Source of the DNA: Gemmatimonadales bacterium
GTDB taxonomy: Bacteria; Gemmatimonadota; Gemmatimonadetes; Gemmatimonadales; GWC2-71-9
Direction of reading: 5' to 3'
Length of the DNA stretch: 64,000 nt
NCBI GenBank assembly: GCA_036398175.1
Contig: DASWHL010000050.1
Location: forward strand, 29,571-93,570
Part shown: positions 42,776 to 52,183 of the stretch, in pieces
Position numbering within the stretch: position 1 is the first letter of the stretch
Layout of the letters: each line of letters begins with the position of its first letter
Notes under the pieces: generated by a model
The model's input: only the letters and a program-made list of their open reading frames with translations
Database searches by the model: none
Told to the model about the DNA's origin: nothing
Program-made: the position numbers and the translations under genes

Positions 42776-43810
42776 GTGAGGGATGCACTGATGGACGGGC
42801 GTTTTCCAGTGGCAGCTCGTGGGGCCGGTCGGCCGGCGGGACCGGGCGACGCGGCCCTGATAGACGAGATCCAGCGGCTCAAGGCCGAGCGCGGCGCCGC
42901 CATCCTGGCGCACAACTACCAGATCCCGGCCATTCAGGATCTGGCGGACATTGTCGCCGACTCGCTCAAGCTGGCGCGGTCGGCCGTCGAGATCGCGGCG
43001 GACACGATCGTGCTGTGCGGCGTGCATTTCATGGCGGAGACGGCGGCCATCGCGAACCCCGGGAAGCGGGTGCTGATCCCGGAGCCCAAAGCCGGCTGCT
43101 CGCTCGCCGACACGATCCAGGCGCGGGACGTCCGCGCGTGGAAGGCCGAGCACCCGGACGGCCTAGTCGTGGCCTACGTGAACACGAGTGCCGAGGTGAA
43201 AGCCCAGGCCGACTACTGCTGTACGTCGGGGAACGCGGTGGCCGTGGTCCGCGCGCTCCCGCCCGACGTCCCGGTGCTGTTCCTTCCCGATTTCTTCCTG
43301 GGCAACTACGTGCGGGAGGTGACCGGCCGGAAGCTCGACGTGTGGCTAGGCGAGTGCCATGTGCACGCCGGTCTCCGGCCCTCCGTGCTCGATGAACGGA
43401 GGAAGGAGCTGCCCGACGCCGAGTTTCTCGTGCACCCCGAATGCGGCTGCACGACCAGCATGGTGTACTACCTGAACCAGGGCGGGAACGGCAACGGAAA
43501 CGGCAACGGGCACGACGAGGGCTCGATCAAGATCGTGTCCACGGAGCAGATGATGCAGGAAGCGCGGCGCTCCACCGCGCGCCGCTTCGTGGTAGCGACC
43601 GAGACCGGCGTGCTGCATCGCATGCGGAAGGAAAACCCGGGGAAGGAGTTCATCCCGGCCTCCGAAGATGCCGAGTGCCGCTACATGAAGATGATCACGC
43701 TCGAGAATCTGCGGGACTCGCTGCGGGACCTCAAGTACGAGGTGACCGTGCCCGAGGCCACCGCGGGCCGCGCGCGGCGCGCCATCGAGCGCATGCTCGC
43801 CATTGGTTGA
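42776..43810 (+). CDS. nadA: quinolinate synthase
   Basis: ILAHNYQIPAIQDLAD, VHFMAETA, YVNTSAEVKA, VHPECGC. The start is either GTG 42776 or ATG 42791. Contains a GGNGNGNGNGH insertion. Confidence 0.92.
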   Translation: MRDALMDGRFPVAARGAGRPAGPGDAALIDEIQRLKAERGAAILAHNYQIPAIQDLADIVADSLKLARSAVEIAADTIVLCGVHFMAETAAIANPGKRVLIPEPKAGCSLADTIQARDVRAWKAEHPDGLVVAYVNTSAEVKAQADYCCTSGNAVAVVRALPPDVPVLFLPDFFLGNYVREVTGRKLDVWLGECHVHAGLRPSVLDERRKELPDAEFLVHPECGCTTSMVYYLNQGGNGNGNGNGHDEGSIKIVSTEQMMQEARRSTARRFVVATETGVLHRMRKENPGKEFIPASEDAECRYMKMITLENLRDSLRDLKYEVTVPEATAGRARRAIERMLAIG

Positions 43811-44636
43811 GCCGCTGGGCTTCGAGGCGGTCCGGGCGGCGTTGGCCGAGGATCGCGTCCGCGACGACGTGACCACGGCCCTCATCGGCGCCGGCGCGGA
43901 TCGGTCGGCGGTCGGCACCTTCATTGCGGAAGAACCATGTGTGGTGGCCGGACTCCCGGTGGCGGCGGAGGTCTTCCGGCAGCTGGGCGTCCGCGATGCG
44001 CTGGTGCCGCTCGTCGAGGAGGGCGCCGGCGCCGGGCCCGGGCAGCCCATTGCCGAGGTGCGCGGCCCCGCCCGGCAGCTCCTGGCCGGCGAACGCACGG
44101 CCCTCAACTTCCTCCAGCGCCTGAGCGGCATCGCCACCGCCACCCGGGCCGTCGTGGACGCGGTTGCCGGAACCGGGGCTGTGGTCACGGACACCCGGAA
44201 AACCACGCCCGGCCTGCGCGAGCTGGAGAAATACGCGGTCCGCATGGGCGGCGGCACCAACCACCGGGCGCACCTCGCCGACGCGGTGCTCTGGAAGGAC
44301 AACCACTGGGCCCTGCTCGGCGGCGCCGACCTCGCGGACACGCTCACCCGCGCGCCCGCGGGCATCCCCGTCGTGGTCGAAGCCGAAACCCAGGAACAGT
44401 TTCAGGCGGCGCTCGACGCCGGGGTCACCCGGATCCTGGTGGACAACCGGACGCCCGCGCAGGTGAAGGCCTGGGTCCGTAAGGCAGGGAAGGGCGTCGC
44501 CATCGAGGCCTCGGGCGGGATCGGCCCGGACACGGCGCGGGCGTATGCCGAGGCCGGGGCGCGCTATCTCTCCATCGGCGCGCTCACGCACTCGGCGCGG
44601 GCGGTCGGGATCCGGCTGGACCTGGCCCTGGAGTAG
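43803..44636 (+). CDS. nadC: nicotinate-nucleotide diphosphorylase (carboxylating)
   Basis: TDTRKTTPGLRELEKYAVRMGGGTNHR, VVVEAET, IEASGGI. TTG start overlaps the nadA stop. Confidence 0.92.
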   Translation: MVEPLGFEAVRAALAEDRVRDDVTTALIGAGADRSAVGTFIAEEPCVVAGLPVAAEVFRQLGVRDALVPLVEEGAGAGPGQPIAEVRGPARQLLAGERTALNFLQRLSGIATATRAVVDAVAGTGAVVTDTRKTTPGLRELEKYAVRMGGGTNHRAHLADAVLWKDNHWALLGGADLADTLTRAPAGIPVVVEAETQEQFQAALDAGVTRILVDNRTPAQVKAWVRKAGKGVAIEASGGIGPDTARAYAEAGARYLSIGALTHSARAVGIRLDLALE

Positions 44637-44643
44637 TCGCGAT

Positions 44644-44669
44644 CAGTCCCGGGCTTCAGCCCGGGACTG
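44644..44669. terminator. bidirectional GC hairpin
   Basis: CAGTCCCGGGC-TTCA-GCCCGGGACTG, an 11-bp perfect stem, between convergent nadC and the cytochrome gene. Confidence 0.6.
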
Positions 44670-44692
44670 TCACCCCCCCCGCTCGCGGCGCC

Positions 44693-46369
44693 TTATGCCC
44701 GGCCCATGCTCCGCCGCACCCCCCATACCGCGCCAAGCACCGCCAGCACCATCAGCGGCCCCGTGACGAGCATGAACAGCGTCCGCGTCCGCGTCGCATC
44801 GGCGCTGCGGATGGTCGCCGCCTCGTCCCGGATGCCGGCGAGGTGGCCGAGTACATCCGCGTAGCCGTACCACCAGGCGTAGTCCGGACTCATGTGGAAC
44901 GCGCCCTTGTAGCTCTTGAGCGCGGAGAAGAAGAACATGTCGAAGTAGTCGCGCTCGATGGGCGTGACGTCGTAGTAGAGGCTCGCCGGCGAATGCTGCG
45001 CCGTGATCTGGTCCAGCTCGATGGCCGTGAACCGCGGGCCCGGGAGCAGCCCCGCCGACCGGGTGGCATGGCTGGGTCGGATCAGGCCGTCGTCGTAGAG
45101 CCCCTTCAGAATGTCCCGCGCCTCGATCACGAGCGCGTCGCCCGCCAGTTTGTGCGCGTCGGCCGACGCGAGGTAGCCGCGTGCCTTGTCCTCCGCGTGG
45201 CACACCAGGCAGACCTTGATCATCTCGTCCCGCTTGGTCTGGTTTTCGGGCGTCTGCGTGATGTCCGTAAGTTGCCCCAGCGCCGGCTGGACGCCCATGC
45301 CCCAGATGATCTTCCGGGTCATGTTGTGCGACACCGACCGCCGGTCGTTCCCGTCCACGTACACCATGTGACAGTACGCGCACGTGGGGGTCTCGTAGCG
45401 CGCGTCGGCCATGGGCGTGTTCCAGTCCCATGCGGCTCCGCGGGCCGTGTAGATGGAGCCGTGCTTGGACGACATGTACGCCTCGTAATTCGGGTGGTCC
45501 GGACCCATGTGGCAGGTGTAGCACGCCTCGGGCTTTTTGGCCTCCTCCAGACTGAAGGCGTGTCGCGTGTGGCAGGCGATGCAGCCGTTCCGGTACGTGA
45601 GCGAACTGCCGTCCACGTACTGCTGGAGGGAATCGCTCCAGTACTGATCGTCCGTCGCGCCCGCCTGCGCGTGGCACGGATCGCAACCCATCTCCATCAC
45701 TTTCCGCGGCATGTCCTTGTAGTGCGGCACGCTGATGTTCCGCTCCCAGTTTGCCCCCAGGCCGCCGGGGTCGGGCCCGTACGAGTGACCCGCGTCGAGC
45801 ACGTGCTCCTTGTAGATCTCGGCATGACACGAGGCACACACGGTCTCGGCCACCCGGCCCTTCGACGCCATGATGCGGTCGTGGTCGTTGCCGTGGCAGT
45901 CCGCACAGGTCATCGAGCGCTGGGCGTGCACGACCCGCGGGTTCTGCGTCCCGGCGCGGCCCATGGCGCTTCGCTCGTACTGCCAGACGATCGTGGGGTT
46001 GAGCCGGCGGTGGCAGTCGGCGCAGCCGGCGGGGCTCAGCTCCCCGCTCGGCAGGTCGGTGCGCAGGCGCGGCTGGGTCGTGGGGAGGCCCCGCAGGTAT
46101 CCGAGCATGCGCCCCGCCTCGGCGTCGCTCACGGCCTCCGCGGGGAACGCCGGCATGATGCCCCGCGGTGTGCGCATCTGCGCCAGGAACGCGGGGAGCG
46201 GCAGGGAAGTCCCGGCGAGCGAAGGGCCTACGCCGCCACGGGCGCTGGCGCCGTGACACCCGAGGCATCCCTTCTGGATGTACAGCGCCTCGGCGGAGGG
46301 CTGTTCCTGGCTCAGGGCCGCTCCCGGGAACACCGTAAGAACGACGAGGCAGAGGCGGACGATCATCAT
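44693..46369 (-). CDS. nine-heme c-type cytochrome: N-terminal monoheme domain + HAO-like octaheme module + C-terminal TM anchor
   Basis: Start moved to ATG 46369 (RBS GGAG, signal MMIVRLCLVVLTVFPGAALS). CXXCH x9: CLGCH, CADCH, CADCH, CASCH, CDPCH, CIACH, CYTCH, CAYCH, CLVCH. CYTCHMGPDHPNYEAYMSSKHG resembles the hydroxylamine oxidoreductase family. Tail LFMLVTGPLMVLAVLGAVWGV. Confidence 0.8.
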   Translation of the reverse strand: MMIVRLCLVVLTVFPGAALSQEQPSAEALYIQKGCLGCHGASARGGVGPSLAGTSLPLPAFLAQMRTPRGIMPAFPAEAVSDAEAGRMLGYLRGLPTTQPRLRTDLPSGELSPAGCADCHRRLNPTIVWQYERSAMGRAGTQNPRVVHAQRSMTCADCHGNDHDRIMASKGRVAETVCASCHAEIYKEHVLDAGHSYGPDPGGLGANWERNISVPHYKDMPRKVMEMGCDPCHAQAGATDDQYWSDSLQQYVDGSSLTYRNGCIACHTRHAFSLEEAKKPEACYTCHMGPDHPNYEAYMSSKHGSIYTARGAAWDWNTPMADARYETPTCAYCHMVYVDGNDRRSVSHNMTRKIIWGMGVQPALGQLTDITQTPENQTKRDEMIKVCLVCHAEDKARGYLASADAHKLAGDALVIEARDILKGLYDDGLIRPSHATRSAGLLPGPRFTAIELDQITAQHSPASLYYDVTPIERDYFDMFFFSALKSYKGAFHMSPDYAWWYGYADVLGHLAGIRDEAATIRSADATRTRTLFMLVTGPLMVLAVLGAVWGVRRSMGRA

Positions 46370-46576
46370 CGCGAGCTCCAACCGGGGGATAGCGCCCAAG
46401 CTACGGGTTCTCGAACGATCGGCAAATCGGCCGGCCGTGAATGCCGACTGTCGCGGTCGGCAATCATTCAGCGCGACTGTCGGATTGGGCCTGCGGCCCC
46501 CCCGCCCGTGACCCGCGTTTGCCCCATTGGGGATCGCGGCGTAGCCTACGATGAACCGACTGACCGGAGCGGACGC

Positions 46577-47785
46577 GTGCTCGACCACGAACGGATCTCC
46601 GCCAAACTGGGCAAGTTCCGCCCGTCCCTGACCCTTGCGCTCAAGCATCTCGTGGCCGCGCGCGTCGCGGCCGGGCTGCCTGTGCACGACTTCGGGTTGG
46701 GCGAAACGAAGGGCGACCTGGCGCCCCACGTGCGCGAAGCGGGTGAGCACGCGTTTCGGGCGGGAAAGACCATGTACGGCGATCCCGGCGGGCTGCCGGA
46801 GGTGCGCCAGGCCGTGCTCGAGTGGCTTGGGCTCCAGGCGGAGTACGGCGTGGACAACGTGGTGGTCACCGCCGGCGCCAAGCAGAGCCTGTTCAACACG
46901 TTTCTAGCCATCTGCAACCCCGCGGACGTGGTCCTGTTCGACGCGGCACCATGGGTGAGCTACCAGCCCCTGGCGGTAGCGGCGTACGCGACTCCCATCA
47001 TGGTGCTCCCCACGGCCGGGTTGGCCAACCACCTCAAGGTGACGCCCGACGACCTGCTCCGGAATCTCCGGATGCGGCCGCACGCCAAGCTCTTCCTGCT
47101 CAACAACCCGGTGAACCCCACCGCGCAGCTCTACACGGCGGACGAGGTGAACGCCCTGCTGGACGTGTGTGTCGAGCACCGGGTGTACTTCCTGCTCGAC
47201 CGCCTCTACTGGCGCATCGTGTTCGACGGCGTGCCGTTTCCGGAACCCCGCCTGGACGAGCGAACCAGGCCGTGGCTCATCCAGGTGGACGGCCTCTCCA
47301 AGAACTTCCGGCGGACGGGGGGGCTGCGCGTGGGCTGGTCCATCGGTCCCACGGACGTCACGGCGGCCATGGTGAACCTCCAGAGTCATTACACGGCGGG
47401 CCCGGCGGTGCCCACGCAGCTCGCCGCCGCCGCGGCCATTGGCGCCGAGTACGACCCCGAACTGGTCCGGGATCTCCAGGCCAAGCGGGATCTGTTGCAC
47501 CGCGAGGCGGCCGGGATGCCGCACGTGACCATCTGGCCCACGCCCGCCAGCTTCTACTCGTTCTGGGACGTGCGGCAGGCCTTCGGCCGGACGACCCCGG
47601 CGAGTGAGGTCCTCCGTACGTCGGACGACGTGGCCACCTATCTGATTCGAGAGGGCGGGGTCGTGACGGCGTCGGGTTCCGGGTTCATGCAGGATGGATA
47701 CCTGCGCCTGTCGTTCGCCACGCCGGACGAGACTATCCGCGGGGGGATGCGGGCTGCGCGGGAGGCGATGGCACGCCTGACGTAG
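46577..47785 (+). CDS. class I/II PLP-dependent aminotransferase
   Basis: GTG 46577 is in frame with the 980-aa track ORF, whose first 578 aa are antisense to the cytochrome gene. LNNPVNPT, GLSKNFRRTGGLRVGW. Confidence 0.8.
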   Translation: MLDHERISAKLGKFRPSLTLALKHLVAARVAAGLPVHDFGLGETKGDLAPHVREAGEHAFRAGKTMYGDPGGLPEVRQAVLEWLGLQAEYGVDNVVVTAGAKQSLFNTFLAICNPADVVLFDAAPWVSYQPLAVAAYATPIMVLPTAGLANHLKVTPDDLLRNLRMRPHAKLFLLNNPVNPTAQLYTADEVNALLDVCVEHRVYFLLDRLYWRIVFDGVPFPEPRLDERTRPWLIQVDGLSKNFRRTGGLRVGWSIGPTDVTAAMVNLQSHYTAGPAVPTQLAAAAAIGAEYDPELVRDLQAKRDLLHREAAGMPHVTIWPTPASFYSFWDVRQAFGRTTPASEVLRTSDDVATYLIREGGVVTASGSGFMQDGYLRLSFATPDETIRGGMRAAREAMARLT

Positions 47786-51802: not shown

Positions 51803-52183
51803 ATGATTCTCGAATGCCGGCCCGACTACTTCAAGATTGACGCGTTTCTGGTGGCGGGTGCGCACGGCGACTACTATCGGCGCGCGGTGCTCCGCTCCAT
51901 TGTCGAGCTGGCCGCGAGCTTCGGCGGCACCGCCATCGCCGAGGGCGTCGAGAGCGCGGCGGACCTGCGCACGGTGCTGAGCGAGGGCGTGCGCACGGTC
52001 CAGGGGTACCTGCTGGCCCGTCCGGCGGCCGCGCACATGCTGGGCGGCGGTGAGCTGCTCGCCCGGGCCGCCAGCCGATTGCCCATGGCTCTGGACGGCG
52101 AGCCGTGGACGCCGAACGGGGACTGGCTGCGGCTGGCCACGCAGAGCATGCTGCACGTCACGCCCCTGGCCGCCGCGGGCTGA
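51803..52183 (+). pseudogene. orphan C-terminal fragment of an EAL (c-di-GMP phosphodiesterase) domain
   Basis: DYFKIDAFLV...TAIAEGVESAADLRTVLSEGVRTVQGYLLARP covers only the last roughly 85 aa of an EAL domain. An in-frame stop at 51776-51778 and the neighbouring gene end (51634) leave no room for the N-terminal catalytic half. Confidence 0.55.

Follow-up and report, generated by a model that had tools for sequence, protein, structure and literature searches.

A nine-haem, membrane-anchored relative of hydroxylamine oxidoreductase with a built-in cytochrome c domain in a Gemmatimonadales bacterium

The gene described here lies at 44693-46369 on the minus strand of a 64,000-nucleotide stretch of Gemmatimonadales bacterium DNA (GCA_036398175.1, contig DASWHL010000050.1, positions 29,571 to 93,570; hereafter the window, to which all coordinates refer). 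It is a real gene for a predicted membrane-tethered relative of hydroxylamine oxidoreductase (HAO) with a built-in cytochrome c, and its product looks more like the nitrite- or nitric oxide (NO)-reducing members of the HAO group than like the nitrifier enzyme. We propose, with slightly better than even confidence, that it acts as a periplasmic nitrite, NO or hydroxylamine reductase of the HAO family, of the non-cross-linked type and fed with electrons via its fused cytochrome c. Each part of this nine-haem protein is already known, and HAO-like cores fused to other redox domains are now being described. The nine-haem anchored family itself is not described in the accessible parts of the literature searched, which included PMC10728637, PMC6784897, PMC12758564, PMC9250108, PMC6064768, PMC10399200, PMC8141241 and PMC8938466.

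The reading frame is intact and free of stops, with 558 codons plus the stop codon, and its 558-amino acid product matches Pfam families PF13442 and PF13447 as well as sequences in the PDB. The choice of start codon is backed by a GGAG located 7 nt 5′ of the ATGATG at 46369, and by homologues of 550-570 amino acids that align with the gene product from residue 1. A longer reading of 685 amino acids from 46750 would run antisense to the aminotransferase gene; it found no support among homologues and was rejected. Nine CXXCH motifs, the number given in the original prediction, were counted in the translation (at residues 35, 116, 155, 178, 229, 263, 283, 330 and 387), and there is no CXXCK motif in the 558-amino acid protein. 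Residues 1-20 (46310-46369; this and all other features of the gene lie on the minus strand) make up a predicted Sec signal peptide, read by eye from the sequence, with a hydrophobic core (KD19 of 2.2 at residue 1) and A-L-S before Gln21.

The last eight of the CXXCH motifs fall within an HAO-family octahaem core that spans residues 108-525 (44795-46048). PF13447 matched at 151.9 bits, against a cut-off of 21.9 (E = 2.6e-44). Among PDB sequences, the single protein matched the Kuenenia stuttgartiensis protein Kustc0458 best (6h5l_A, E = 1.6e-41), followed by N. europaea HAO (NeHAO; 1fgj/4fas, about 1e-33), Kuenenia HOX (KsHOX; 4n4j, 1.8e-30), hydrazine dehydrogenase (HDH; 6hif, 4e-20) and an Ignicoccus octahaem protein (4qo5, 2e-14). 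With a profile built from 50 family members the order was identical and the scores were stronger (6h5l_A 1.3e-65, 4fas_A 6.4e-48, 4n4j_A 9e-47, 6hif_G 2.5e-37 and 4qo5 7.7e-27), and in the family profile alignment the eight core motifs are collinear, one-to-one, with haems 1-8 of NeHAO and Kustc0458. Their spacings are 39, 23, 51, 34, 20, 47 and 57 residues here vs. 66, 27, 57, 10, 20, 51 and 50 in NeHAO. The eight motifs had been predicted to resemble the HAO/octahaem family; because neither membership of an MtrA/OmcA-like family nor an incompatible haem spacing was found, this assignment stands. The hydrazine dehydrogenase equivalog NF052343 (NCBIfam) scored 94.2 bits, far below its cut-off of 900. 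An AF2 model built from the family alignment (pLDDT 73, pTM 0.74) gave 11 Foldseek matches with E ≤ 0.001, all of them HAO-family chains, with 6h5l_A in first place (2.7e-12).

After haem motif 6, Asp291-His292 (in GPDHP; 45494-45499) aligns with D267-H268 of NeHAO, the distal Asp-His pair, which is presumably catalytic in HAO. The pair is invariant in 121/121 sequences (for this and the other conservation figures, the gene product and 120 listed homologues were aligned), and GPDHP is identical in Kustc0458. Between haem motifs 4 and 5, a family-specific insertion of about 24 residues (residues 234-262; 45584-45670) has no counterpart in the PDB chains and brings the spacing to 34 residues, compared to 10 in both NeHAO and Kustc0458; it contains the near-invariant Y243, W244, Y251, D253, R260 and N261. 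The candidate catalytic haem is that of the fourth HAO haem motif, CDPCH at residues 229-233 (45671-45685), which aligns with the fourth CXXCH of NeHAO (C229-H233). Haem 4 is the catalytic haem of HAO enzymes (PMC8042395; bioRxiv 10.64898/2026.07.28.741245).

Ahead of the core, residues 26-95 (46085-46294) correspond to a class I cytochrome c domain, with CLGCH at 35-39 and Met72 as candidate axial residue. PF13442 matched residues 26-92 (E = 1.3e-10, 41.9 bits against a cut-off of 27), and C35, C38, H39, M72 and the Met72-Pro73 pair are invariant in 121/121 family members. The N-terminal domain of the AF2 model matched the small class I cytochromes 1wve_C/1dii_C (TMt 0.78 in Foldseek). The domain thus combines a CXXCH motif with a distal Met in a c-type fold, in agreement with the earlier reading of CLGCH and its downstream Met as a class I cytochrome c, and we infer that Met72 is the haem ligand. 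At the other end of the protein, a hydrophobic helix at about residues 530-550 (44720-44782; KD19 of 2.2 at residues 530-533) is followed by a short basic tail. This predicted transmembrane helix, also claimed originally, is kept in 121/121 members and modelled as a helix by AF2 with pLDDT >90. The anchor does not qualify as an extra feature, since the N. europaea HAO precursor likewise has a hydrophobic stretch and then a basic tail at its C-terminus (supplement alignment, PMC8940962).

The original prediction could not tell whether the cross-linking Tyr of oxidative HAOs is present, and proposed aligning its position. The loop concerned, His492...Trp499-Trp500-Tyr501-Gly502-Tyr503 (44861-44896), maps to the Tyr467 region of NeHAO, the Tyr cross-link site; H492, M493, Y497, W499, W500, Y501, G502 and Y503 are all near-invariant, the named loop residues being found in 121/121 sequences. 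In NeHAO and KsHOX (from alignments) and in HDH (PMC8940962 supplement), the cross-link Tyr is located eight residues after a conserved His; eight residues after His492 is Trp500. In the epsilon-Hao proteins, the place of the key Tyr is taken by a Trp, and eight residues earlier there is a conserved Met (PMC8940962, citing Haase); in the supplement alignment of that paper their Trp falls in the cross-link Tyr column, with Met replacing the His. A multidomain HAO-like protein (MHAO) of Brocadia has Trp782 in the place of Tyr467, and His499 as a ligand of haem 4 (bioRxiv 10.64898/2026.07.28.741245). This haem-4 His and the first Trp of an S-W-W-W-G motif are 283 residues apart in all 20 motif-bearing sequences among the 22 MHAO homologues examined. 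The loop of our protein aligns with the S-W-W-W-G motif without gaps, putting Trp499 in the place of Tyr467. It is also gap-free against 6h5l_A, and the family profile alignment pairs the cross-link Tyr of KsHOX with Trp499. The site occupied by Tyr in an oxidative, cross-linked (P460) enzyme thus appears to hold Trp (Trp500, or Trp499 by profile).

Two further comparisons concern the residues around this site. In anammox relatives of Kustc0458 and MHAO with W-W-x forms of the loop, the Tyr501 column contains W in 31 sequences, Y in 19, L in 2 and F in 1 (61 motif-bearing sequences of 67 examined); Tyr is found in this column in one Brocadia protein orthologous to Kustc0458 (557 bits to 6h5l_A), and Phe in one of its 90%-identity cluster-mates. 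A W-x-M-G motif, common to our protein and Kustc0458, is found where NeHAO has Tyr334, a position that we take to have a functional role in HAO. In a MAFFT alignment of 77 representatives, the Tyr of NeHAO-like sequences fell now on W499, now on W500, and this alignment was not used to set the register. All mappings except pairwise phmmer, which gives Tyr501, put Trp at the cross-link position, and we consider that the cross-link Tyr is quite probably absent, with Trp in its stead. The lack of this Tyr favours the reductive options, i.e. reduction of nitrite, NO or hydroxylamine, over hydroxylamine oxidation.

The best sequence and fold match of the protein, Kustc0458, converts nitrite to NO, can reduce NO and hydroxylamine as well, and is incapable of oxidising hydroxylamine; the separate dihaem protein Kustc0457 extends its haem chain (PMC8042395). 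Besides the octahaem HAO core, the protein shares with Kustc0458 (HAOr; 6H5L) an identical GPDHP, the W-x-M-G motif and a W-W-aromatic-G loop in which Trp most likely stands where cross-linked enzymes have their Tyr, and a Met-ligated cytochrome c lengthens the haem chain in both systems (here by prediction). The two differ in several respects. Over the Foldseek alignment they are only 27% identical; the additional cytochrome is one class I domain, joined to the N-terminus, here and a separate dihaem subunit there; the C-terminal anchor and the 24-residue insertion after haem motif 4 are features of our protein; the third loop position is Tyr here and Trp there; and the host is a soil bacterium rather than an anammox organism.

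Other members of the HAO group offer partial parallels. Epsilon-Hao proteins of Campylobacterota, which reduce nitrite and hydroxylamine (PMC8042395), resemble our protein in having Trp eight residues after an anchor residue, a P-D-Y-x-x-W-x-G form of the loop and a stand-alone gene in non-nitrifiers (Haase et al. 2017 as quoted in PMC8940962). They differ in the anchor residue (Met there, His here), in forming a separate clade in our tree and in lacking a fused cytochrome c. The Brocadia pituitae protein BpMHAO also joins an HAO-like core to a fused redox domain, with Trp for the cross-link Tyr, and its character is called reductive; the fused module is multicopper-oxidase-like there, whereas it is a cytochrome c here, and the BpMHAO architecture is confined to Planctomycetota (bioRxiv 10.64898/2026.07.28.741245). 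NeHAO itself (1FGJ, 4FAS) shares the eight haem motifs in order, the Asp-His pair and an encoded C-terminal hydrophobic helix. In contrast to NeHAO, however, our protein most likely has Trp at the position of Tyr467, has another residue in place of Tyr334 and carries an additional N-terminal cytochrome c domain, and there are no adjoining amo, haoB, c554 or cM552 genes. Cytochrome cd1 (NirS) also consists of an N-terminal class I cytochrome c and a periplasmic N-oxide-reducing domain, and receives electrons from the c-type cytochrome pool; the parallel is one of design only, since its catalytic fold and cofactor are unrelated.

The gene belongs to a large family. Of 7999 candidates scored in a word-indexed search, 705 proteins reached E ≤ 0.001, including at least 120 close homologues of 550-613 amino acids, 69-88% identical to the gene product and with both PF13442 and PF13447 in all listed matches; the best are 82-88% identical. 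Nine CXXCH motifs are present in 120/121 sequences and 190 positions are near-invariant across the 121. Many family members carry the JGI name "hydroxylamine dehydrogenase". A scan of species-representative genomes yielded 74 loci, 70 of them at 59-82% identity, in metagenome-assembled genomes labelled Gemmatimonadota, Rokubacteria/Methylomirabilota, Eisenbacteria, Krumholzibacteriia, Polyangiaceae, Binatia, Thermoanaerobaculaceae, Thermodesulfobacteriota and Nitrospirota. A search of 150 other sampled genomes from its own phylum, one of them of the same genus, did not find the gene; this same-genus genome (G058) keeps nadA-nadC (73% nucleotide identity) with different genes after them. The "orphan" of the original prediction does stand alone in its own genome, as the sole PF13447 gene, but the protein is not singular, having a large and conserved family. 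The intact frame, nine haem motifs, Met ligand and anchor, together with the 190 near-invariant positions, point to strong purifying selection, and the data indicate a patchily distributed accessory gene.

An exhaustive search of 50%-identity representatives gave 1881 relatives with E ≤ 0.001, the nine-haem family being a single representative among them. P0123 (58% identity), the closest of the other representatives, is an octahaem protein that is unfused, carries a lipoprotein-type signal and lacks a C-terminal helix, which makes the cytochrome c fusion a specific trait of the nine-haem family. The phylogenetic placement proposed with the original prediction was made with a quick maximum-likelihood tree (short search, SH-aLRT support only) of 74 of the 77 filtered representatives, leaving out P0131, P0163 and P0176. 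Our protein grouped with P0122, P0123, P0126 and P0129 in a five-member clade (support 100), sister (support 96) to a group of NeHAO-like, HDH/HOX-like and Kustc0458/MHAO-like sequences; the epsilon-Hao-type sequences formed a separate clade. By this tree, the protein is not an orthologue of the Kustc0458-type HAOr, its clade lying outside the group that holds HAOr and MHAO. As a separate observation, the clade member P0129 (41% identity) has seven CXXCH motifs, with the motif for catalytic haem 4 missing and the Asp-His pair replaced.

Within about 7 kb of the gene there are no haoB, c554, NrfH-type or other nitrogen-cycle genes, and none of the nitrifier set amoCAB, haoB, c554 and cM552 flanks it; the survey of genes in the window upheld the earlier observation that haoB, c554/cM552 and nrfH-like partners are missing and that nadC and an aminotransferase are the neighbours. 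Elsewhere in the genome, a NirK-like gene lies on a 2.1-kb contig (C23; 182 bits against an equivalog cut-off of 296), its product being 67% identical to the NirK-like protein of locus L010, and contig C78 carries nrfA (446 bits) with an adjoining NrfH-type (NapC/NirT-type) gene (41 bits). Cytochrome d1, Hcp and NarG were not found in this genome, nor was any NosZ match above the cut-off; the sole PF13435 match (30 bits) is in an unrelated 563-amino acid open reading frame on another contig. The genome encodes four haem-copper oxidases. One of them, a divergent form of 756 amino acids on contig C56 (L081:980-3250, minus strand), scored 208 bits with PF00115 and a weak 52 bits with CtaD, and could be a quinol-type NO reductase.

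Among relatives, a NirK-like gene is found near the HAO-like gene at 7/74 loci, and is the sole recurring functional neighbour, scoring 186-191 bits where it emerged as such. In four loci (L009, L010, L019 and L031) it is located directly upstream; in the other three (L028, L029 and L008) it lies no more than about 2.5 kb away. Over the seven loci these NirK-like proteins score 176-199 bits, below the 296-bit equivalog cut-off, and a hemerythrin-like gene often follows downstream. We lean towards a role in NO or hydroxylamine handling, downstream of nitrite reduction, as a possible meaning of the NirK and hemerythrin neighbours in this minority of relatives.

We propose the following mechanism for the reductase. 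The protein would be exported by its signal peptide, have nine c-type haems attached and be held on the inner membrane by its C-terminal helix; by homology it may form a trimer with 27 haems. Electrons from the respiratory c-type cytochrome pool would enter at the fused His/Met class I domain, encoded directly before haem 1, which would do here what Kustc0457, a separate dihaem partner, does for Kustc0458. They would then pass along the bis-His haem chain to haem 4, beside Asp291/His292, where nitrite might be reduced to NO, or NO or hydroxylamine to ammonium. The detoxifying function with a built-in electron-transfer domain suggested in the original prediction is plausible.

Several findings argue for a reductase. 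Kustc0458, the closest solved relative, lacks the cross-link Tyr and shares GPDHP and W-x-M-G; a NirK-like gene adjoins at the 7/74 loci; and the own genome has both the NirK-like type and the nrfHA pair. No match to ammonia monooxygenase (AMO) was found either in the own genome or in 50/50 other holder genomes; for the own genome, however, which is 3.37 Mb in size and 88% complete, control genomes also gave no match, making this weak evidence, and the search of the holder genomes was made without a positive control. Other observations likewise weigh against the proposal. In 50 holder genomes, representing 50 of the 74 loci, NirK or NirK-like proteins (E ≤ 1e-30) were found in 21, with 8 above the cut-off, and NrfA in 10, figures that speak against a fixed partner pathway. 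Near the active site the AF2 model is of low confidence (pLDDT <50 at residues 266-304) and the Foldseek TM-scores reach only about 0.35, owing to the poor quality of the haem-free model. The sister group in the tree mixes oxidative and reductive enzymes, so that phylogeny leaves the catalytic direction unfixed, and the high-potential His/Met cytochrome c domain could be an electron acceptor as well as a donor. Lastly, the sequence-based mappings of the cross-link site disagree among W499, W500 and Y501: pairwise phmmer matches Tyr501 to NeHAO Tyr467 and to the KsHOX cross-link Tyr, a one-residue gap being needed in either case, and Tyr501 is invariant in 121/121 sequences.

This last disagreement is the basis for an opposite explanation, in which the protein is an oxidative hydroxylamine (or NO) oxidoreductase with a P460-type cross-link to Tyr501, passing electrons through its fused cytochrome c to a terminal oxidase. 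Such an enzyme could allow a non-nitrifying heterotroph to scavenge hydroxylamine leaked by nitrifiers, for energy or protection. The phmmer pairing of Tyr501-Gly502 with the cross-link Tyr-Gly of KsHOX and the conserved Asp-His pair are consistent with this, as is the JGI label, and the four haem-copper oxidases would provide possible electron sinks. In nitrifiers, HAO is paired with NirK, and the NirK adjacency would suit a pairing of this type equally well. However, the gap needed to align Tyr501 breaks the His-to-Tyr spacing of eight that is constant in three cross-linked enzymes, while Trp is obtained from the profile alignment as well as from the epsilon-Hao signature and the mapping in the preprint. 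Tyr also occurs at this position in Brocadia orthologues of the non-cross-linked Kustc0458, swapping with W, F and L, and the T-Y dipeptide of the known cross-linked enzymes is absent. Tyr334 of NeHAO is replaced by the Gly within W-x-M-G, as in Kustc0458, and no amo, c554-type or cM552-type partner lies nearby. We therefore regard an oxidative enzyme as fairly unlikely.

The identification of Tyr501 with the cross-link Tyr, as read from phmmer, was dropped after the His + 8 spacing, the profile alignment and the literature mappings had been taken into account. A role for this residue was kept under consideration because the register of the Trp is disputed (W499 or W500) and Tyr501 is invariant next door, two positions past the Trp mapped in the preprint. 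Tyr501 might reach the catalytic haem of the neighbouring subunit and form a P460-like or new covalent link, with hydroxylamine or NO oxidation feeding into aerobic respiration; we consider this unlikely.

Alternatively, the HAO scaffold could serve a role outside nitrogen metabolism, as a membrane-tethered electron-transfer protein or a reductase of sulfite, tetrathionate, metal or peroxide. In a survey of the nearest up- and downstream open reading frames (85 in total, from 49 loci; second neighbours and later loci were left out), the neighbours were mostly unrelated to one another, comprising housekeeping or varied redox genes, with no universal operon partner and no conserved nitrogen-cycle partner among them. 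The holder-genome counts for NirK(-like) proteins and NrfA would fit such a role, as would the 24-residue insertion beside the catalytic haem motif, which has no counterpart in solved HAOs, and the octahaem relatives OTR and MccA use other substrates (PMC9250108). On the other hand, neither the haem-4 motif nor the Asp-His pair varies, both align with HAO, and the sole repeated functional neighbour is the NirK-like gene with its hemerythrin-like gene. The characterised members of the HAO branch that are named in the accessible text of PMC8042395 all use N-oxides, hydroxylamine or hydrazine. A function unrelated to nitrogen thus seems to us distinctly unlikely.

That the gene is a decaying or silent accessory, acquired horizontally and without a current role in its host, would be in keeping with its absence from the 150 other genomes of the phylum and its lone position between housekeeping genes, but is very improbable given the intact frame, haem motifs, Met ligand and anchor, the purifying selection evident from 82-88% identity to the best homologues and 190 near-invariant positions, and a GC content of 0.70 that equals that of the flanks.

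The surroundings of the gene show some additional features. One flank carries glnS, an amidohydrolase, an M19 dipeptidase, nadA and nadC, the nadC side being convergent with the gene; the other carries the divergent aminotransferase, recQ, an acyl/acetyl-CoA synthetase-like (acs-like) gene, an EAL-domain fragment and an S8 peptidase. The divergent promoter region that separates the HAO-like gene from the aminotransferase contains, at 46438-46482 (no strand assigned), CGACTGTCG twice as identical copies 29 nt apart, together with an inverted repeat of 11 nt, which may be a candidate operator; no sigma-70-like promoter was seen in 44550-46650. The EAL open reading frame (51803-52183, plus strand; 126 amino acids) covers the last third of the domain only (profile positions 165-236 of 236), and is probably a gene fragment. 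The NadA encoded at 42776-43810 (plus strand), in other respects a full-length quinolinate synthase, contains an internal series of Gly-Asn repeats.

Among the relatives' genomes, the rokubacterial loci L048, L049, L051 and L053 and the neighbours L052 and L054 have a small Fe-S assembly (PF01883) gene directly downstream; upstream genes at the rokubacterial loci encode a cytochrome c, EB_dh, COX2-like or large molybdopterin protein. One holder genome (G200) has an nrfA match with two in-frame TGA codons (contig C84:4226-5452).

The automatic label "hydroxylamine dehydrogenase" is carried by a family found in common soil and groundwater phyla in which no AMO was detected, by a search lacking a positive control. 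If the protein is a reductase, as we propose, counts of "hao" in soil metagenomes would overstate the potential for nitrification, and part of the "hao" signal would instead represent reduction of nitrite, NO or hydroxylamine. If, alternatively, the Tyr501-linked form were to prove true, non-nitrifying soil bacteria (Gemmatimonadota, Rokubacteria and others) would be scavenging hydroxylamine on a wide scale, and the nitrogen cycle would include a flux that is currently uncounted. With its electron-carrier domain, catalytic core and membrane tether, the predicted protein would be a self-contained, one-gene module, which could help to decide whether the Tyr cross-link alone sets the catalytic direction of HAO enzymes.

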